Assembly: GCA_026415775.1 (NCBI GenBank)
Contig: JAOAGL010000001.1
Coordinates: forward strand, 206,233 to 270,232
Source: Patescibacteria group bacterium
GTDB lineage: Bacteria > Patescibacteriota > Minisyncoccia > UBA6257 > JAAZHW01
Reading direction: 5' to 3'
DNA: 64,000 bases
In this document: positions 23,245 to 57,303 of the stretch, in pieces
How positions within the stretch are numbered: the first letter of the stretch is position 1
How the letters are laid out: every line of letters starts with the position of its first letter
Notes under the pieces: model-generated
Database searches by the model: none
What the model was told of the DNA's origin: nothing
Seen by the model: the letters and a program-made list of their open reading frames with translations, nothing else
Program-made: the position numbers and the translations under genes

Positions 23245-24085
23245 GAAAAATTTAATAATCGCTATTCTTTTCTTAATAATTTTAGATGCTATTTTATGGT
23301 ATTTTATTTTAGCTGATTCGCGAGCGGTGGAATTTTATTTTTTAGATGTAGGCCAAGGAGATGCTACATTGCTTAATTTTCCTTTTTCTGGGCGGATACT
23401 AATTGATTCAGGCGATGGAAAAATAATAGAACATTCCCTTGCTAAAATCGGCGGCTATTTTAAACGTTCGGTTGATATTTGGATTTTAAGTCATGCGAAC
23501 CTGGATCATTATGGTGGTTTTTTAAAATTAATTAATAATACTGAACCCCAAATTTTTATTTACAATGGTTTTAATTCGGATGCCCAATCATTTCAAGAAT
23601 TAATTAATAAGTTAAAACAAAAAAAAGTTCCTATTATAATTCTGGCTAGGGGAGATAAAATAAAAATAGGTGATAATCGATTTGATATTTTGTGGCCACC
23701 ACCAAATTCAAATATAAAAGATTTAAATGATAATTCTTTAATTTTATATTTTAAAAACTTTTTTGGTACAGCTTTATTTTTAGGAGATGTTTCTCAAAAA
23801 ATTCTTGGACAAATCCAAAATTATTTTAATAATGGATTGGTTGTTGATGTTTTAAAAGTGGCTCATCATGGTTCAAAAACTAGTTTAAATAAAGAATTTT
23901 TAGATTCAGTGAAACCAAAAATTTCTTTAATCGGTGTTGGTTTAAATAATCGTTTTAATCATCCTCATTCTGAAGTTATCGATTTTTTAACAAAAATCGG
24001 CTCTCAAATTTTGAGAACCGATATTAACCATAATATCAAGATTATTTTTAATAAAGGTATGGAAATTCAAACCTTTTCTTTTTAA
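23216..24085 (+). CDS. comEC: ComEC C-terminal part, a metallo-beta-lactamase domain preceded by one TM helix, encoded as a separate ORF
   Basis: FYFLDVGQGDATLL...ILSHANLDHYGG...VLKVAHHGSKTS is the ComEC MBL domain. It overlaps the upstream ORF by 29 nt, and the frames meet at an A6 run at 23209-23214. Confidence 0.8.
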   Translation: MFEEKQKVFEKNLIIAILFLIILDAILWYFILADSRAVEFYFLDVGQGDATLLNFPFSGRILIDSGDGKIIEHSLAKIGGYFKRSVDIWILSHANLDHYGGFLKLINNTEPQIFIYNGFNSDAQSFQELINKLKQKKVPIIILARGDKIKIGDNRFDILWPPPNSNIKDLNDNSLILYFKNFFGTALFLGDVSQKILGQIQNYFNNGLVVDVLKVAHHGSKTSLNKEFLDSVKPKISLIGVGLNNRFNHPHSEVIDFLTKIGSQILRTDINHNIKIIFNKGMEIQTFSF

Positions 24086-24987
24086 AGCCACTTTTTCTTT
24101 TTAAAAATAACCAAAAATAGCGTTGCAAATAAAAACATTAAACCAACAATATACCAAAAACCATAAGGGGAAGAAACTAAGGGGGTGTTTTCGGTATTCA
24201 TGCTAAAAATACTCGAAAAAAGAGTTAAAGGAAAAGTGATGAAGGCCATAATGGTTAAAATTTTCATAATTTCATTTGTGCGGCTTTCGAAAAAGGTGTT
24301 ATTGGTGTTTTCTAGCGATTCAATTGTTTCTTTCAAATTATCAATGCTCATCCACAATTTTTCATAATCACCCAAAAGGTCATTAAAATAAATTTCCAAG
24401 TTTTTTCCAAAGAAGTTTAAACCCTTAAGCTTTAAAGATTCCAAAATCGGGTGCTGGAGACGAGCGATAATCCGTTGATCCAAAATATCTCTTTTTACAA
24501 TGGCAATTTTTTCAATTAATGACTTATGTTCTCCTCTAAACAATTCGCATTCTATTTGTTTAATCTTTTCCTGAATATGTGTTAATTGGCGAAGAGAAAA
24601 AATTAAACCATTTTCTAAAATATAATAAAGCAAGTGAGCGGGGGTTTGATTAAGATATTGATTTGATAACTCCTTTTTTAATTCGGCGAAGATTTCATCG
24701 ATCGGTTCGTAGTTCTTATAGCGTACTGTTATTAAATAGTCGCGGGTTATTAGAAAATCAACTTCAACAGCTTCTGAGGTTTTTTCGTTTTCGTTGTAAT
24801 TTGAAAAATAATAAACGATAAACATTAAATTATCATAAATTTCAATTTTAGAACGCGTGGAGGGTTGTTTTAATTCTTCAAGCAAAATAGGATGAAGTTT
24901 AAATTTATCTTTTAAAAATTTTAGATCTTCTTGTGATGGAGACAGAATATCAATCCAATTGATTTTAGAATTAATTTCTTGTTTCAT
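24082..24987 (-). CDS. corA: CorA-family divalent cation transporter with SMN in place of the GMN motif
   Basis: 301-aa ORF with two C-terminal TM helices. ...[20 protein letters not shown] aligns to the CorA loop ...GIYGMNFENMP. Confidence 0.8.
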
Positions 24988-25035
24988 AGTTTTATATTTT
25001 TATTATATAAAAAACAAAAAACACAAGCAAATTGC

Positions 25036-25064
25036 TTGACATCAAGCTTTTTATTTGTTAAAGT
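25036..25064 (+). promoter_or_regulatory. Candidate sigma70-type promoter for rpsL-rpsG-fusA with a near-leaderless transcript
   Basis: -35 TTGACA at 25036-25041, a 17-nt spacer, then -10 TAAAGT at 25059-25064. The rpsL ATG lies ~14 nt downstream and has no SD. Confidence 0.35.
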
Positions 25065-25077
25065 ATTTTACATATTT

Positions 25078-25488
25078 ATGCCAACAATCAATCAATTAAT
25101 TAAAAAAGGACGAAAAAGAATTGTTTATAAAAGTAAAGCACCAGCATTAATCTGGGGTTTTAATTATAAAAAGAATAGGCCTGTGAAATATCCCTCGCCA
25201 TTCAAACGCGGGGTTTGTTTGAAGGTTTTTACAACCACTCCCAAAAAACCAAATTCCGCCTTGCGTAAAGTAGCGCGTGTTAGATTAACTAATGGTATTG
25301 AAGTAACGGCTTATATTCCAGGTATTGGTCATAATTTACAAGAGCATTCGGTTGTATTGGTGCGAGGCGGCCGCGTCAAAGATTTACCAGGCGTTCGTTA
25401 TCATATTGTTCGTGGTGTTTTGGATGCTACGGGAGTAGAAGGTCGTCGTCAGCAACGTTCTAAATACGGCGCAAAGAAGCCACAATAA
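25078..25488 (+). CDS. rpsL: 30S ribosomal protein S12
   Basis: [13 protein letters not shown]...[28 protein letters not shown]. The real ATG is at 25078. Confidence 0.95.
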
Positions 25489-35243: not shown

Positions 35244-36494
35244 ATGAAACAGAAAATACAACAATTAGTAAAAATTAGAAGAGAAAAGCGCTATTTTCTT
35301 GCTTATTTTATAGAATATAGAAAAATTTTATTGGTTAATGAAATTGGAGCAAGGATATTGGAATTATTTTTTAATGAAAATAAATCTATTTTAGAAATTG
35401 CTGAATTTTTTATGAGGGGAGGAAAAAAATATAAAAAATCAGATATAAAAAATAATATTAGAAAATTTTTAAAAAAAGTTGCAAAAGAATTAGATAAAAG
35501 AGATTCGGGTGAATGGCCAATAATAGAAGGAGATTTTTTAGAAACCCCCATAGGAGTAGAACTTCAAATAAATACAACTTGTAATTTAAGATGTAAACAT
35601 TGTTTTCAAAGTAATTATAGTCGCATAATGCCATTTTCTCGCATAAAAAATATTCTATCGCTTTTATATAAAAATAATATATTTGAAATTAATTTAGTAG
35701 GCGGCGAACCATTTTTACATCCTAATATTTTCGAGATAATAGAAATGTGTTGTAAAAAATACAATTTTGCTGTAAATGTGATCACCAATGGTACATTATT
35801 AACAAGCAAAATTATTAATTTACTTTCTAAACATAGAGACAAAATAGCATTATTAATAAGCCTCGAAGGAGTGAAGGATACAAACGATTTAATTAGAGGA
35901 AGAGGAACATTTAAAAAAGTTGAGAGGACAATAAAAAAATTAAAGAAAAAAAGGATATATTTTGAATTCTCTTTTACTTTGAACGCATTGAATATTAAAT
36001 ACTGGAAACAATTTTTGTTATACGCTCATAAATTAAAAGCCCCTTGCAATTTTAATTTATTCAAACCATTTTCCAATAAGCAGAAATATTTAGTTATTCA
36101 CCCATTTGATTATTTCGAATTTATTAATGAGTTATTTATTTTTAAAAAAATAAAAAAAATAGAAACCGGTATTACAGATGCTGCTATATGGTCGTATGTG
36201 AATAAATTAATGCCACGCAATCAATGCAAAGCAACTTTAACAGGTTTAAATATTAATGCAAAAGGAGAAATGGTTCCTTGTGCTTTTTTTGATGAAGTTG
36301 GTTATTATAAAAACTTGCCAACGATAGATAAAAATTTTTTAAAAAATTGGAAATATAATTATTGGTTTAAGGATTTCAGAAAATATAATTTAAGAGAATG
36401 TCAATTTTGTTCTTATATTTTTAATAAATCTCGCGCTGCTTTTAATCCGTATGGTTTAAGCGCTTTTAAAAAATGGCAAAGAATTCGTCAATAA
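35244..36494 (+). CDS. Radical SAM enzyme with an N-terminal PqqD-like RiPP recognition element and a C-terminal Cys-containing SPASM/twitch-like extension; a candidate peptide-modifying maturase
   Basis: Residues ~20-90 (ILLVNEIGARILELFFNENKSILEIAEFF...) fit the PqqD/RRE winged-helix pattern. The cluster motif is CNLRCKHC (CxxxCxxC) and GGEPFLH is the SAM-binding motif. The C-terminal region carries about 5 Cys (APC, NQC, VPC, RECQFC). Confidence 0.85.
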   Translation: MKQKIQQLVKIRREKRYFLAYFIEYRKILLVNEIGARILELFFNENKSILEIAEFFMRGGKKYKKSDIKNNIRKFLKKVAKELDKRDSGEWPIIEGDFLETPIGVELQINTTCNLRCKHCFQSNYSRIMPFSRIKNILSLLYKNNIFEINLVGGEPFLHPNIFEIIEMCCKKYNFAVNVITNGTLLTSKIINLLSKHRDKIALLISLEGVKDTNDLIRGRGTFKKVERTIKKLKKKRIYFEFSFTLNALNIKYWKQFLLYAHKLKAPCNFNLFKPFSNKQKYLVIHPFDYFEFINELFIFKKIKKIETGITDAAIWSYVNKLMPRNQCKATLTGLNINAKGEMVPCAFFDEVGYYKNLPTIDKNFLKNWKYNYWFKDFRKYNLRECQFCSYIFNKSRAAFNPYGLSAFKKWQRIRQ

Positions 36495-36883: not shown

Positions 36884-37441
36884 ATGTTTTTTATTATTTT
36901 ATTAATTATTATCTTTATTTTGTTCACGCATATTTATGCGGGTATTATTGCTGCTCCATTTGTATCCACACCTAAAAATTATATAAGAAAAGCATTAGAA
37001 ATATGCCAACTTAAAGAGGGAGAAAAGATTTATGATTTGGGTTCAGGTGATGGTCGTGTTTTAATTATAGCAGCCAAGGAATTTAATGCCGAGGCTTTGG
37101 GTTTTGAGCTTTCTTATTTTTTATATCTTATTTCAAAAATTAATATTTTTTTGCGTGGTCTTTCAAAAAAAGCCAAGGTGAAATGGTCTAATTTTTATGA
37201 AGAAGATTTAAGTCTGGCAGATGTGATATTTTGCTGGTTAACACCAAAAGCTTTCCCCAAATTGGTCAATAAATTTAATCAAGAATTAAAGATTGGAACC
37301 CGCGTTATTACTTATTCTTCGCCTCTTGGTTTTTGGCAGCCAGAAAGAGAGGTTGAACTTCAGAGCGAAGGAATAAAATTTTTTGGAAAAACTTTAATCA
37401 AGCCAGCCAAAGTCAAAATATTTTTTTATTGTAAAAAATAG
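36884..37441 (+). CDS. Small class I SAM-dependent methyltransferase with an N-terminal hydrophobic anchor
   Basis: IYDLGSGDGRVLI is motif I and DVIFCWL follows it. Confidence 0.6.
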   Translation: MFFIILLIIIFILFTHIYAGIIAAPFVSTPKNYIRKALEICQLKEGEKIYDLGSGDGRVLIIAAKEFNAEALGFELSYFLYLISKINIFLRGLSKKAKVKWSNFYEEDLSLADVIFCWLTPKAFPKLVNKFNQELKIGTRVITYSSPLGFWQPEREVELQSEGIKFFGKTLIKPAKVKIFFYCKK

Positions 37442-45875: not shown

Positions 45876-45898
45876 AAAAGCTCGTTGAAGAGCTTTTT
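45875..45898. terminator. Bidirectional terminator between the MltB-like gene and the convergent RF1-like gene
   Basis: aaaaaGCTC-gttgaa-GAGCttttt. Confidence 0.65.
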
Positions 45899-46631
45899 AA
45901 TTATTTTTTTCCTGATAAATTTTGAAAATATTATCTAATTCACCATCCATAATTTTTTCCAAATTATGGAAATTTTTCTTATAGCGATGATCTGTCAAAC
46001 GATCTTGCGGGAAATTATAAGTTTTGATTTTTTCAGAACGATCAGCACGGCCAATTTGTTGGCGTCTTTCTTCGGAAAGTTTTCCTTGGTCAGCCGTCCA
46101 TTTAGCCTCATATAATTTTGTTTTCAACATCTCAATAGCTTTTTCTCTATTTTTGAATTGAGACCTTTCGCTTTGACAGGAAACAATTACTCCGCTTGGT
46201 TTATGTAGAATACGGACAGCGGTTTCAACTTTATTAACATTTTGTCCGCCTGGCCCTGATGATCGGAAAAAACTAATTTCTAAATCTTCTGGTTTAATAT
46301 CAACTTTTACATCTTTTGGTTTATATAAAACTGCTACAGAGGCGGTAGAAGTATGAACGCGGCCGGATTTTTCTGTTTCGGGAATGCGTTGAACGCGATG
46401 AACACCAGCTTCGTTTTTAAATATTTCCACTCCTTCACCAGTAATTTCCAAAACCGCCTCCTTAATTCCTTTTAACGAACTATAACTGATATCCAAAAGA
46501 GTTGTTTGCCAGTTTTTTTTCTGGGCATATTTTTGATACATTCTTAATAATTCAGCAGCAAAAAGAGCGGCTTCTTCGCCGCCAACACCAGCTCTTATTT
46601 CTAAAATTATAGAATTAACCTCTTGAGACAT
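45897..46631 (-). CDS. prfA: Peptide chain release factor 1-like protein lacking the N-terminal domain 1
   Basis: 244 aa. GVHRVQRIPETE has PET in the PxT position. RSSGPGGQNVNKVETAVRILHKPSGVIVSCQSERSQFKNREKA is the GGQ motif. Its N-terminus, IILEIRAGVGGEEAALFAAEL, aligns to roughly residue 110 of E. coli RF1. Only 6 nt separate it from rpmE, so there is no room for a domain-1 exon. Confidence 0.85.
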   Translation of the reverse strand: MSQEVNSIILEIRAGVGGEEAALFAAELLRMYQKYAQKKNWQTTLLDISYSSLKGIKEAVLEITGEGVEIFKNEAGVHRVQRIPETEKSGRVHTSTASVAVLYKPKDVKVDIKPEDLEISFFRSSGPGGQNVNKVETAVRILHKPSGVIVSCQSERSQFKNREKAIEMLKTKLYEAKWTADQGKLSEERRQQIGRADRSEKIKTYNFPQDRLTDHRYKKNFHNLEKIMDGELDNIFKIYQEKNN

Positions 46632-53284: not shown

Positions 53285-54997
53285 ATGATGCAGCATAGAA
53301 AAGCAAAAAAAGAAATAAAGGATTCTCATGAAAAGATAAAAATTTGTATTTTGGGTGGCGTTGGTGAAGTCGGACGCAACCTTTCATTTATTGAATACAA
53401 AAATCAAATATTGGTTTTTGATTGCGGATTGAGATTTCCAGAAGAGGATATGCCGGGCGTTGATTTTATTATTCCCAATGTCGATTATTTAGAGAAAAAT
53501 CGTAAAAAAATATTAGGAATTTTTATTACACACGCTCATTATGATCACATTGGCGCTATTCCTTATATCGCTGAAAAATTGGGTTCTCCAACTATTTATA
53601 CAGCTCCTTTAACCAAGGCGATTATTCTTAAAAGACAAGCAGACTTTCCGTATCAAAAAGAACTGGATGTTGAGGCGATTGATATTGAAAAATTAGAGCC
53701 AATCTCTCTGGGTGTTTTTAAAATTCATCCTTATCTTGTTAATCACAATGTACCTGATACGTTAGGATTTGCCACAGAAACTCCCTTAGGAACAATTTTT
53801 TATATGCCAGATTTTAAAATTGATTTTAGTCCAATTATTGATAAGCCGATTGATTTGGGTCGAATTAGTCGTTTAGCCTCAAAAACACCGCTGGTTTTAA
53901 TGGCGGATTCAACTGGTGCCGAAGAACCTGGTCATTCAATTTCCGAAAAAGCAATTTATGATGATTTAGAAAGAATTTTTGAAAAGGCATCTGGAAGAAT
54001 TATTGCTGCAACTTTTGCCTCTCTTATTAGTCGTTTACAACAATTGATTTGGTTGTCAGAAAAATTTAATCGTCGTGTAGTAATTGATGGTTATAGTATG
54101 AAAAGCAATGTAGAAATTGCACGAATGATGGGTTATTTAAAAATTAATAAAAATACTTTAATTTCTCCTCAGGAGGCGCAGGGATTGCTTTCGCGACAAT
54201 TGACAATTTTATGCACGGGTTCTCAAGGCGAGGACAAGGCGGTTTTAATGAGAATTGCCAACCGCGAACATAAATTTTTCAAAGTGGAAAAAGGAGATAC
54301 AGTCATTTTTTCTTCATCGGTTGTTCCTGGCAATGAAAGAACAGTTCAAAATCTAAAAGATAGTTTTTATCGTCAAGGCGCTAGAGTGTTTCATTATAAA
54401 ATGATGGATATTCATGCTGGTGGTCATGCCCAGCAAGAGGAACTAAAACTGATGATTAATCTAATTCGTCCGAAATTTTTAATTCCAATTCATGGTCAGT
54501 ATTCAATGCTTCAGGCTCATGCTGATTTGGCTGAGCAATTAGGGATGCCAAAACAAAATATTGTAATTGCTAATAATGGTCAGATTATTGAAGTTGGTAA
54601 AGAACAGATTATGCCAACCCAATATGAAGTGCCGGCTAATTATGTGATGGTTGATGGATTGGGCGTTGGAGATGTTGGAGAGATTGTTTTAAGAGATCGC
54701 AATCAATTAGCTCAAGATGGAATGCTGGTTATTGTGGCAGTTATTGATGGTGAAAAGGGAGAATTAAGAGGCGAACCGGAAATTTCTTCTCGTGGATTTG
54801 TTTATCTTAAAAATTCTCAAGAATTAATGGAAAAAACGAAGTATATTATTAAAGATGTTATCGAAAAAACAATTTCAAAAGACCATACAACTAATTGGGC
54901 TTATGTAAAAGATAATTTGCGTGATAAAGTAGGCGAGTTTCTTTTTAAAGAAACGCAGCGCCGCCCGATGGTTTTACCGTTTATTGTTGAAGTTTAA
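53285..54997 (+). CDS. rnj: Ribonuclease J (metallo-beta-lactamase / beta-CASP)
   Basis: ICILGGVGEVGRNLSFIEYKNQILVFDCG...ILGIFITHAHYDHIGAIPY. Confidence 0.9.
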   Translation: MMQHRKAKKEIKDSHEKIKICILGGVGEVGRNLSFIEYKNQILVFDCGLRFPEEDMPGVDFIIPNVDYLEKNRKKILGIFITHAHYDHIGAIPYIAEKLGSPTIYTAPLTKAIILKRQADFPYQKELDVEAIDIEKLEPISLGVFKIHPYLVNHNVPDTLGFATETPLGTIFYMPDFKIDFSPIIDKPIDLGRISRLASKTPLVLMADSTGAEEPGHSISEKAIYDDLERIFEKASGRIIAATFASLISRLQQLIWLSEKFNRRVVIDGYSMKSNVEIARMMGYLKINKNTLISPQEAQGLLSRQLTILCTGSQGEDKAVLMRIANREHKFFKVEKGDTVIFSSSVVPGNERTVQNLKDSFYRQGARVFHYKMMDIHAGGHAQQEELKLMINLIRPKFLIPIHGQYSMLQAHADLAEQLGMPKQNIVIANNGQIIEVGKEQIMPTQYEVPANYVMVDGLGVGDVGEIVLRDRNQLAQDGMLVIVAVIDGEKGELRGEPEISSRGFVYLKNSQELMEKTKYIIKDVIEKTISKDHTTNWAYVKDNLRDKVGEFLFKETQRRPMVLPFIVEV

Positions 54998-55718
54998 TTT
55001 TTTCGGCTACTATATACAAATCTTTTTCCTTTGTATCAGAACGCAAGATATTGCCCGCTTCAATAATTTTAAAACCATTTTGGAAAAATAATTTTTTTAA
55101 TTCTCTGAGAGAAAAGCGATGAATAAAACGATTACATAGATTAGACCACGGAATAAAAACATCCCCGCGTTCTAACGGTAAATTTTTGAACCATCGTTGA
55201 AACGCTGATTTAAAAATATATTTAATTCTTTCGAATTTACCCGAAAAAAGAAGGTGTATCAGATTAAGATTCCACACGGTTAAAATAATTATGCCGTTTT
55301 CTTTTAAGGTTCGGTGAGCTTCTTTGATAAATTTTTGGTGGTAATTTTTTGAGGGAATGTGATGCAGTGTATCTAAACAAACAATATAATCAAAAAAATT
55401 ATTTTCAAAGGGGAGAGATAAAAAAGATTGATTGGCAATAAACTTCGCGTGCGGATACTTATTTTTAGCAATTTTGATTAATTCTTCAGAGATATCAATG
55501 CCATAATAATCAGATTGTTCGAATAGAGAATAATAACGGCCATGACCGCATCCCCAGTCTAAAATTTTTGTTTGTGGTTGAAGATGGCAATATTTCAAAA
55601 TCAAATTTTTCACTACGGCAGGAGGGGTAAAAGAGCGTTTATTTGCAAAATCAGAAGCGATTAAGTTATAATTTTCTTTGGTCTTTTGGAGTAAAAAATT
55701 AGCAAAATCTTCATTCAT
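54981..55718 (-). CDS. Class I SAM-dependent methyltransferase (Methyltransf_11), Trm9/AlkB8-like
   Basis: ILDWGCGHGRY is motif I. CLDTLHHIPSKNYHQKFIKEAHRTLKENGIIILTVWN parallels the Trm9 block containing the conserved HH. Confidence 0.7.
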   Translation of the reverse strand: MNEDFANFLLQKTKENYNLIASDFANKRSFTPPAVVKNLILKYCHLQPQTKILDWGCGHGRYYSLFEQSDYYGIDISEELIKIAKNKYPHAKFIANQSFLSLPFENNFFDYIVCLDTLHHIPSKNYHQKFIKEAHRTLKENGIIILTVWNLNLIHLLFSGKFERIKYIFKSAFQRWFKNLPLERGDVFIPWSNLCNRFIHRFSLRELKKLFFQNGFKIIEAGNILRSDTKEKDLYIVAEKIKLQQ

Positions 55719-57303
55719 GGAAATAGCAAAACAAATTATTATTGAGGCGACAAAAAATAAAATAAAAACAAAAAAAGAGTTAGAAGATTTAAAAAGATTA
55801 ATGGCGGAAAAATTTAAAAAACCGCTGATTTCTCAAGTTGAGCTATTAAAAGATTATCATAAATTATTAAAAAATAAAAGAATAAAAAAACAGCCAGCAT
55901 TAGAAAAAATTTTAATGACTCGGCCGATGCGTTCTTTGTCTGGTATTGTTAATATTACTGTTTTAACGAAACCATTTGGTTGTCCAGGGCAATGTATTTT
56001 TTGTCCTTTTGAAAAAGGATTTCCAAAGAGTTATTTAAAGGGCGAACCAGCCGCTGACCGCGCTTATGACTTAAAATTTGACCCTTATTGGCAGGTGACT
56101 AAAAGGTTAGAAATGCTTACAGAACAAGGACATCCTGTTGATAAAATTGAATTGCGAATTGTAGGCGGTAGCTGGTCTTTTTATCCTAAATATTATCAGC
56201 AATGGTTTATTAAAAGATGTTTTGAGGCGGCTAATAATTTTAATACAAAGCAAAAAAGAAAAAATTTAAAACTAGAGGAGATATTTAAAATTAATGAAAA
56301 ATCAAAAGCGCGAATAGTTGGAGTTTCAATTGAGACGCGTCCAGATTTGATTAATGAAAAAGAAATTCAGCGATTAAGAAAATTGGGTATAACAATGGTA
56401 GAATTGGGCGTACAAACTGTTTTTGATGATATTCATAAATTAAATAAAACCGGGCTTGATGTAAAAATTATTGAAAAAGCAACCTTTTTATTAAAAGAAG
56501 GTGGATTTAAAGTGCTTTATCATTTAATGCCAAATTTATATGGCTCTGATTTTCAGAAAGATTTAAAAATGTTTGAAACTGTTTTTAATGATGAACGTTT
56601 TAAGCCGGATTGGTTAAAAATTTATCCGACAGTTGTTTTAGAAAATACACATCTTTATAATTTGTGGCGTCAAAATAAATATCAGCCATATTCTGATAAA
56701 AAATTAAAAGATTTATTAATCAAAGCTAAAACAGAAATGCCCTATTGGGTAAGAATTGCTCGAATTATTCGAGATATTCCAGCGCAGAAAATTGTTGCAG
56801 GAACAAAATTGTCAAATTTAAGAGAGATTATTCAAAAAGAAATGAAGATGAAAGGTTTAGAATGCCATTGTATTCGTTGTCGGGAGGTCAAAGAAAATTA
56901 TGACCCAAAGGAAAGAATTTATTTATTCAGAGAAGATTATGATGCATCGGGAGGCAAAGAGGTTTTTTTGAGCTTCGAAAACAAATCAAGAACTAAAATT
57001 TTTAGTTTATTACGTTTAAGAAAACCAGTTTTTTCAACTCCCCCTATTTTTCCTGCGCTAAAAGATGCAGCTTTGTTACGTGAAATAAAAACCTATGGAG
57101 AATTGGTGCCGCTTTCTGAAAAGAAATTGGCTCCACAGCATCGGGGGTTGGGGAAAAAACTTATACAGGAGGCAGAGTGCATTGTTAAAAAAGAATTTAA
57201 ATTAAAAAAATTAGCCGTTATTGCAGGCGTTGGAGTTCGTGGATATTTTAAAAAATTAGGATATCGCTTAGAAGACACTTACATGGTAAAAAAATTAAAT
57301 TAG
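55717..57303 (+). CDS. elp3: Elp3-like radical SAM / GNAT tRNA wobble-uridine carboxymethyl (cm5U) synthase
   Basis: The rSAM cluster is FGCPGQCIFCP, with IVGGSW and ELGVQTVFDDI. The C-terminal GNAT domain contains QHRGLGKKLIQEAE. ATG 55717 overlaps, in the divergent orientation, the start codon of the methyltransferase; the TTG at 55678 is a less likely start. Confidence 0.85.
   Translation: MEIAKQIIIEATKNKIKTKKELEDLKRLMAEKFKKPLISQVELLKDYHKLLKNKRIKKQPALEKILMTRPMRSLSGIVNITVLTKPFGCPGQCIFCPFEKGFPKSYLKGEPAADRAYDLKFDPYWQVTKRLEMLTEQGHPVDKIELRIVGGSWSFYPKYYQQWFIKRCFEAANNFNTKQKRKNLKLEEIFKINEKSKARIVGVSIETRPDLINEKEIQRLRKLGITMVELGVQTVFDDIHKLNKTGLDVKIIEKATFLLKEGGFKVLYHLMPNLYGSDFQKDLKMFETVFNDERFKPDWLKIYPTVVLENTHLYNLWRQNKYQPYSDKKLKDLLIKAKTEMPYWVRIARIIRDIPAQKIVAGTKLSNLREIIQKEMKMKGLECHCIRCREVKENYDPKERIYLFREDYDASGGKEVFLSFENKSRTKIFSLLRLRKPVFSTPPIFPALKDAALLREIKTYGELVPLSEKKLAPQHRGLGKKLIQEAECIVKKEFKLKKLAVIAGVGVRGYFKKLGYRLEDTYMVKKLN

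Follow-up and report, generated by a model that had tools for sequence, protein, structure and literature searches.

A conserved divergent gene pair encoding Elp3 and a Trm9-like methyltransferase, a predicted tRNA wobble-uridine modification module, in a Patescibacteria group bacterium

A 64,000-nucleotide (nt) stretch of DNA from a Patescibacteria group bacterium (contig JAOAGL010000001.1; the whole stretch is here called the window) carries two abutting, divergent genes that encode an Elp3 homologue and a methyltransferase of the Trm9 type. The identification of an Elp3-Trm9 pair is well supported by sequence and synteny, and the enzyme activities are predictions. We propose, with a probability of about 70%, that the two genes form a eukaryotic/archaeal-type module for modification of the tRNA wobble uridine in a bacterium of the candidate phyla radiation (CPR), in which 5-carboxymethyluridine (cm5U34) would be made and then converted to its methyl ester, 5-methoxycarbonylmethyluridine (mcm5U34). 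Previous work described bacterial Elp3 as a rarity confined to Dehalococcoides (PMC7663514, PMC6367351), and according to a review the Trm112-dependent methyltransferases had no homologues detectable in bacteria (PMC5372719). A 2026 paper places Elp3 in "numerous bacteria" (PMC13315578), and PGAP annotation names bacterial Elp3. The literature searched contained no description of Elp3 in CPR/Patescibacteria or of a bacterial Trm9. The view that these enzymes are rare in bacteria, or without bacterial homologues, is at odds with conservation of the pair in 65/80 species-representative loci and with the roughly 1,800 sequence clusters of the methyltransferase family. The mcm5-type tRNA modification, regarded as "non-bacterial", probably exists in many bacteria.

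Elp3 and its divergently encoded methyltransferase

The Elp3 gene (55717..57303, plus strand) encodes a protein of 528 residues with radical S-adenosylmethionine (SAM) and KAT/GNAT domains, a predicted tRNA U34 cm5U synthase. The neighbouring gene (54981..55718, minus strand) encodes a Trm9-like class I SAM methyltransferase of 245 residues, with predicted formation of the methyl ester of mcm5U34 from cm5U34. The initial annotation had described the two open reading frames (ORFs) as divergent with overlapping starts, and this arrangement was confirmed at these coordinates: the sequence CATG at 55716..55719, a feature of neither strand in particular, contains both ATG start codons, which share 2 nt. 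An upstream TTG at 55678 was considered as the Elp3 start and rejected, as homologues align from residue 1 of the ATG at 55717. The Joint Genome Institute (JGI) gene call for the source contig, Ga0417229_000033, likewise has an Elp3 of 528 residues and a 2-nt overlap with the methyltransferase start.

Elp3 matched TIGR01211 with 557.3 bits (cut-off 350), and the match covered positions 4-522 of the 522 in the profile. Among PDB sequences, the matches included the Elp3 of Methanocaldococcus infernus (6iaz, 2.8e-123), that of Dehalococcoides mccartyi (5l7j, 5.9e-113), and eukaryotic Elp3 structures. The score against M. infernus Elp3 (MinElp3) was 415 bits, and pairwise alignment with D. mccartyi Elp3 (DmcElp3) gave 45% identity. 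The triad for the radical SAM [4Fe-4S] cluster lies in CPGQCIFC (C89, C93 and C96; 55981..56004, plus strand) by alignment with DmcElp3, C93 and C96 aligning with Dmc C27 and C30, and C89 corresponding to Dmc C23 by reading of the motif. The zinc-binding cysteines of CHCIRC (C383, C385 and C388; 56863..56880, plus strand) align with Dmc C310, C312 and C315, and conservation of this motif across bacterial and archaeal Elp3 has been described (PMC6367351). The GNAT acetyl-CoA motif QHRGLGKK (residues 474-481; 57136..57159, plus strand) is kept in DmcElp3 as QHRGLGRK, and Dmc K77, K193, E386 and Y441 are all retained, as K143, K265, E456 and Y510. Residues 1-66 (55717..55914, plus strand) form a basic N-terminal extension with no counterpart in the DmcElp3 alignment, 21 of the first 72 residues of the protein being K or R; archaeal and eukaryotic Elp3 typically have such a basic N-terminus, which plays an important part in recognition of the tRNA substrate (PMC6367351). 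Judged from its sequence, the window protein is a genuine full-length Elp3 with predicted cm5U34-forming activity.

The methyltransferase matched the Pfam families Methyltransf_11 and Methyltransf_23. To place it further, a family profile made from an alignment of 39 methyltransferase homologues was searched against 177,635 PDB sequences. The top match was Trm9 of Yarrowia lipolytica (5cm2_Z, 5.2e-29), over profile positions 26-216, a match that spans the Rossmann core, the N-terminal helix and the C-terminal strands. Hvo_0019 of Haloferax volcanii (6f5z), which is Trm112-bound and is not Trm9, was a weak match to the profile (6.6e-11), and no solved H. volcanii Trm9 was among the matches. An AlphaFold2 (AF2) model of the methyltransferase had a Rossmann-type fold and a predicted local distance difference test (pLDDT) score of 95.5; when this model was compared with the PDB by Foldseek, Trm9 came joint first, with a target-normalised template modelling (TM) score of 0.85. 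In hhalign, the family profile and an alignment of yeast Trm9 gave a probability of 99.96 and an E of 7e-39 over 203 columns. The Saccharomyces cerevisiae Trm9 (ScTrm9) sequence used as query was 100% identical to database entry P0100. On a yeast Trm9 hidden Markov model (HMM) the median score of the bacterial family was 79 bits (maximum 110), generic methyltransferases from the tail of the first search scored 21-32 bits, and there was no match to the other methyltransferase within the window. Conversely, the family HMM gave ScTrm9 114 bits and Escherichia coli CmoM 35 bits, the CmoM sequence being unverified; a CmoM-like assignment was rejected on these scores. The initial annotation's choice of the Trm9 family over a UbiE/COQ5-like one held up, with Trm9 ahead in the profile and HMM comparisons. 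By sequence, the methyltransferase belongs with Trm9, and its activity is predicted from that membership.

A generic small-molecule or UbiE/COQ5-type enzyme whose adjacency to Elp3 is incidental would accord with the automatic annotations, which call many family members "UbiE" or "class I SAM-dependent methyltransferase", and with Pfam and NCBIfam, which give the protein only generic class I matches below the family cut-offs; JGI's automatic annotation labels a few members TRM9 or ALKBH8. We disfavour this alternative and hold it to be very improbable. The Ubie_methyltran score was just 22 bits, and a UbiE-like assignment was rejected on that score. Further, conservation extends to Trm9-specific residues that lie outside the Rossmann core, and the pairing with Elp3 recurs in most species-level loci (65/80), with varying flanks and in two phyla. 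To our knowledge, CPR bacteria are generally reported without quinone biosynthesis, which we also count against a UbiE/COQ5-type role.

Létoquart et al. showed that eight alanine mutants of ScTrm9 abolish or strongly reduce function in vivo and in vitro (PMC4678810); the residues are R29, D72, H116, W145, W168, R241, Y243 and N271. Their conservation was counted in 86 bacterial family members. The equivalents of R29, D72 and W145 were each retained in 86/86, that of H116 in 82/86, that of R241 in 75/86 and that of W168 in 74/86. The N271 equivalent was also retained in 82/86, with D instead in the window protein and in two further sequences, and the Y243 position was Y in 45/86 and F in 14/86. 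In the window methyltransferase 6/8 of the essential residues are identical (R28, D75, H120, W149, W191 and R197). Its N-terminal helix motif, YNLIASDFANKR (55635..55670, minus strand), contains Y17 and R28, the equivalents of ScTrm9 Y18 and R29, and the ScTrm9 R29A change causes an activity loss of about 95% (PMC4678810). In SAM-binding motif I, LDWGCGHGR (55536..55562, minus strand), the family alignment shows no variation at G56 and C57 and almost none at G58, and D75 of GIDIS (55488-55502, minus strand), equivalent to ScTrm9 D72, is likewise invariant. The motif LHHIPS (55350..55367, minus strand) supplies H119 and H120, equivalent to ScTrm9 H115 and H116; these positions are H in 77/86 and 82/86 members, and ScTrm9 H116A is inactive (PMC4678810). 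The active-site strands TVWNL, DVFIPW and NRFIHRF (55113..55280, minus strand) carry W149 (Sc W145), W191 (Sc W168), R197 (Sc R241) and, at the Sc Y243 position, I199, and the C-terminal strand EKDLYIV (55008..55028, minus strand) has D233 at the ScTrm9 N271 position. Between the TVWNL and DVFIPW strands lies a CPR-specific basic insertion of about 35 residues (150-185; 55164-55271, minus strand), in which the AF2 model has helices at 153-158 and 162-177; neither yeast Trm9 nor the Dehalococcoidia methyltransferases have this insertion.

Conservation and geometry of the gene pair

Loci carrying a methyltransferase homologue were collected with a profile from a 14-sequence alignment, one genome per GTDB species being taken, and the scan yielded at least 80 such loci. 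Among the matches listed, the labels were nearly all Patescibacteria or unclassified bacterial metagenome-assembled genomes (MAGs), and included Paceibacterota, Portnoy-, Magasanik-, Falkow-, Kuenen- and Kerfeldbacteria, Gracilibacteria and Peregrinibacteria; the closest relatives of the window were labelled Paceibacterota, Parcubacteria and Nealsonbacteria (CPR/Patescibacteria). Of the 80 species-representative loci listed, 65 had Elp3 directly upstream in divergent orientation by tblastn. The others comprised one tandem arrangement (L053), three loci with Elp3 1-3 kb off, and 11 with no Elp3 up to 4 kb away, two of these 11 ending at a contig edge. The divergent arrangement is far beyond chance. 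Six homologues whose contexts were looked up individually all had Elp3 divergently adjacent, with varying flanking genes, and ORF clustering over the loci gave no third conserved gene (methyltransferase 87, Elp3 77, next family 18). The same pairing was found in a second phylum, in a Dehalococcoidia MAG, and also on a 1.0-Mb contig that encodes a close DmcElp3 homologue. In D. mccartyi CP019867.1, the crystallised DmcElp3 is encoded 43 nt from a divergent gene for a family member of 224 residues (L090:4283-4957, minus strand) that has 8/8 of the essential Trm9 residues; the literature searched made no mention of a methyltransferase neighbour of DmcElp3. An exhaustive profile search gave 1,816 clusters of the methyltransferase family at 50% identity (E <= 1e-30). 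The pairing from which the initial annotation had argued is accordingly a conserved one, found in related genomes in the proportion given above and in Dehalococcoidia as well.

Several individual loci deserve mention. Divergent arrangements like that of DmcElp3 were found in L091 and L009. In L053, from a Gracilibacteria MAG (JBGAUX010000018.1), the Elp3 and methyltransferase genes follow one another on one strand with about 40 nt between them, and may be co-transcribed. L022 (DAOPTN010000030.1), labelled Candidatus Pacearchaeota archaeon, carries the pair with an Elp3 62% identical to that of the window; the probable explanation is a CPR contig in the wrong bin, the alternative being transfer.

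Spacing was studied in 74 divergent loci, namely 68 of the 80 species-representative loci and six others. The two start codons were separated by 10 nt or less in 44/74. Exact CATG overlap, as in the window, was found in 16/74 (L004, L007, L010-L012, L016, L018, L025, L027, L029, L031, L033, L035, L037, L041 and L046), and 6/74 had CATATG. Because the spacing is mostly 10 nt or less, intergenic space is absent in most lineages, and because the start codons of the pair abut, each promoter must sit within the coding sequence of the partner. Such embedded promoters lock the Elp3 and methyltransferase genes together physically. The genes are divergent and therefore not an operon; co-regulation of the pair is plausible, given the conserved geometry. 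A promoter scan showed no enrichment over shuffled sequence (8 sites versus 11.4 expected). The best promoter-like site, TTGCAA-18-TATAAT, with 10/12 matches (55643-55672), falls within the methyltransferase gene, its end lying 45 nt before the Elp3 ATG, and gives no more than a hint of an Elp3 promoter. On the other side, a conserved aATTATT is found about 12-20 nt upstream of the methyltransferase ATG, its opposite strand being the conserved Ile-Ile codons of Elp3, and this sequence could double as a -10 element.

The predicted pathway and its genomic setting

Previous work showed that archaeal Elp3 by itself suffices for cm5U formation on tRNA in vitro and that Trm9-Trm112 converts cm5U to mcm5U (PMC7663514, PMC6144793, PMC4678810). 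In the pathway proposed here, Elp3 would act alone in the first step: its radical SAM domain would split SAM to give a 5'-deoxyadenosyl radical, this radical would activate the acetyl group of GNAT-bound acetyl-CoA, and attachment to C5 of U34 would yield cm5U34. We infer that the CPR Elp3 makes cm5U34 because its catalytic residues are completely conserved. In the second step, the divergently encoded Trm9-family methyltransferase would use SAM to methylate the cm5 carboxylate, giving mcm5U34, a step predicted because of family membership, the conserved active-site residues and the conserved gene linkage. The pair predicts mcm5U as the end product of the bacterial Elp3 pathway, and it gives CPR bacteria a further translation feature of archaeal/eukaryotic type. 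For biochemistry it supplies a small, possibly Trm112-independent Trm9, and the adjacency to DmcElp3 makes the question of bacterial mcm5U directly testable in the culturable D. mccartyi.

A number of observations weigh against this pathway. In the single-sequence search of the methyltransferase, Trm9 was fourth among the PDB matches; the margin in the profile search was modest, at 104 bits for Trm9 versus 93 bits for the uncharacterised PH0226; in the Foldseek comparison with solved structures, Trm9 shares first place with an uncharacterised Methanosarcina mazei methyltransferase (3sm3); and the window protein, at 53 bits on the yeast Trm9 HMM, is at the low end of its family. It departs from Trm9 at 2/8 essential positions (I199 for Y243 and D233 for N271), and the equivalent of ScTrm9 W33 is missing. 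In eukaryotes and H. volcanii, Trm9 depends on Trm112. A search with an unverified query turned up no Trm112-like ORF in the 64 kb of the window, nor at a distance of up to 4 kb from the pair at about 90 loci. Finally, direct evidence for uridines of the xcm5U type in bacteria is lacking, and the in vitro activity of DmcElp3 is very weak (PMC7663514).

With regard to Trm112, the methyltransferase probably works without it, and one might speculate that the CPR helical insertion aids tRNA binding or partly stands in for Trm112. The possibility must also be considered that the methyltransferase is coupled to Elp3 but has some other target, such as another atom of the nucleoside, another tRNA position, or an RNA that is not a tRNA. 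The window clade's D in place of the uridine-reading N271, its lack of Y243, the extra insertion in the CPR enzymes, and the failure of the unverified query to find Trm112 in the window and loci would all fit such an enzyme. Yet the residues proposed to hold the cm5 carboxylate or stack on U34, i.e., R29, H115/H116, W145 and R241, are kept, and the D. mccartyi orthologue has all eight essential residues. We regard another target as improbable, and retain the cm5 carboxylate as the predicted substrate.

The initial annotation had argued for a complete pathway that replaces MnmE/MnmG. Completeness extends no further than mcm5U: the neighbourhood of the pair yielded neither a 2-thiolation gene nor a Trm112. 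As for replacement, a broad form of the proposal is that much of the Patescibacteria and Dehalococcoidia make mcm5U34, until now recorded only from eukaryotes and some archaea, with a stand-alone Elp3 and a Trm112-independent Trm9, that this module replaces MnmE/MnmG, and that the abutting starts were selected, keeping the genes inseparable and co-expressed. We offer it tentatively and think it rather doubtful as a whole. The module may instead be real but additional to MnmE/MnmG, acting on different tRNA subsets or present as an accessory acquisition, and to this we give somewhat less than an even chance. Roughly 15% of the methyltransferase homologues have no Elp3 next to them, which indicates some flexibility of the system and is in keeping with an additional role. 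Against an additional role, no mnmE, mnmG or mnmA was found in the window or in the related loci (about 8 kb each and about 750 kb together, each about 1% of a genome), a result of very low power. In the window this search was by Pfam, included the GIDA and MnmE domains, and covered 64 kb of a larger genome, again with very low power. Phmmer searches for MnmG, MnmE, MnmA and Trm112 (YcaR) likewise gave no matches in the ORFs of the window and 93 loci, and carry almost no weight, the queries being unverified. Also, the strong reduction of CPR genomes would make two parallel systems for C5 of U34 unexpected. The literature searched held nothing relevant on MnmG in Patescibacteria or on MnmE/MnmG in D. 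mccartyi.

The window has a GC content of about 33% and carries the bacterial informational genes rpoC, pnp, nusA, tig, clpP, fusA, ileS, cysS, tsf, rpsB and uvrABC. The methyltransferase gene is convergent with a gene for RNase J (53285-54997), the 3' ends overlapping by 17 nt (54981-54997), and in the closest relatives (L004-L006) the methyltransferase gene again has RNase J next to it on the downstream side. Close to the pair is a gene for a cupin-type glucose-6-phosphate isomerase (PF06560; 52475-53107, plus strand). This isomerase is best known from archaea, and would be another archaeal-flavoured gene near the pair. The release factor 1 gene (45897-46631, minus strand) encodes only 244 residues and matches prfA positions 103-340 of 347 with 349 bits (cut-off 400); because the match begins only at position 103, N-terminal domain 1 is missing. 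The ORF begins 7 nt past the stop of rpmE (L31, 46638-46925). A small methyltransferase (36884-37441, plus strand) had the archaeal protein-lysine N-methyltransferase NF041081 as its best match (73.7 bits, cut-off 200), and a radical SAM protein of 416 residues (35244-36494, plus strand) showed SPASM/twitch-type similarities below every family cut-off. The longest ORF for S12 (24979-25488, plus strand) starts at TTG and overlaps the divergent corA (24082-24987, minus strand) by 9 nt; since the Pfam match to S12 is confined to residue 72 onwards, the true start is probably downstream of the one listed. The segment 38663-43444 (plus strand) encodes a protein of 1,172 residues with only a C-terminal PKD domain, followed by one of 415 residues without a Pfam match, and these may be surface proteins.

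Comparison with known systems

The eukaryotic pathway of Elongator followed by Trm9-Trm112 or ALKBH8-TRMT112 uses the same enzyme families for the same predicted two steps, cm5U and then mcm5U. Shared with it are the Elp3 catalytic residues and the Trm9 signature of R29, D72, H115/H116, W145, W168 and R241. The window pair differs in being physically linked and in that no Elp1, Elp2, Elp4-6 or Trm112 was found nearby. The methyltransferases differ as well: the lysine-rich insertion of yeast Trm9 is absent from the window protein, which has instead the helical insertion of about 35 residues after the W145 strand. Among archaeal systems, the Elp3 of M. infernus (PDB 6IA6/6IAZ) is, like that of the window, a stand-alone protein with a basic N-terminal extension, and in Sulfolobus solfataricus Elp3 is clustered with the gene for a Trm9 orthologue (PMC6144793). 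From these archaeal systems, to which the Trm9 of H. volcanii (HVO_1032-Trm112) also belongs, the window pair differs in its bacterial host.

Among bacterial Elp3 proteins only DmcElp3 (PDB 5L7J) has been studied; its gene, too, has a divergent partner from this methyltransferase family (L090), at a distance of 43 nt. DmcElp3, however, has 459 residues and lacks the basic N-terminus, whereas the window Elp3 has 528 residues and possesses it, and the D. mccartyi methyltransferase is without the CPR helical insertion. E. coli CmoM (SmtA) is, like the predicted window enzyme, a bacterial class I methyltransferase acting on the carboxyl group of a wobble uridine modified at C5 to form an ester, in this case converting uridine 5-oxyacetic acid (cmo5U34) to its methyl ester (mcmo5U34). 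CmoM is nevertheless much more distant than Trm9, and its substrate comes from CmoA/CmoB rather than Elp3. Finally, the bacterial MnmE-MnmG(-MnmC) pathway to 5-(carboxymethyl)aminomethyl- and 5-methylaminomethyluridine ((c)mnm5U34) modifies the same atom, C5 of U34, with a similar role in decoding, but its enzymes and chemistry are unrelated to those of the Elp3/Trm9 pair.

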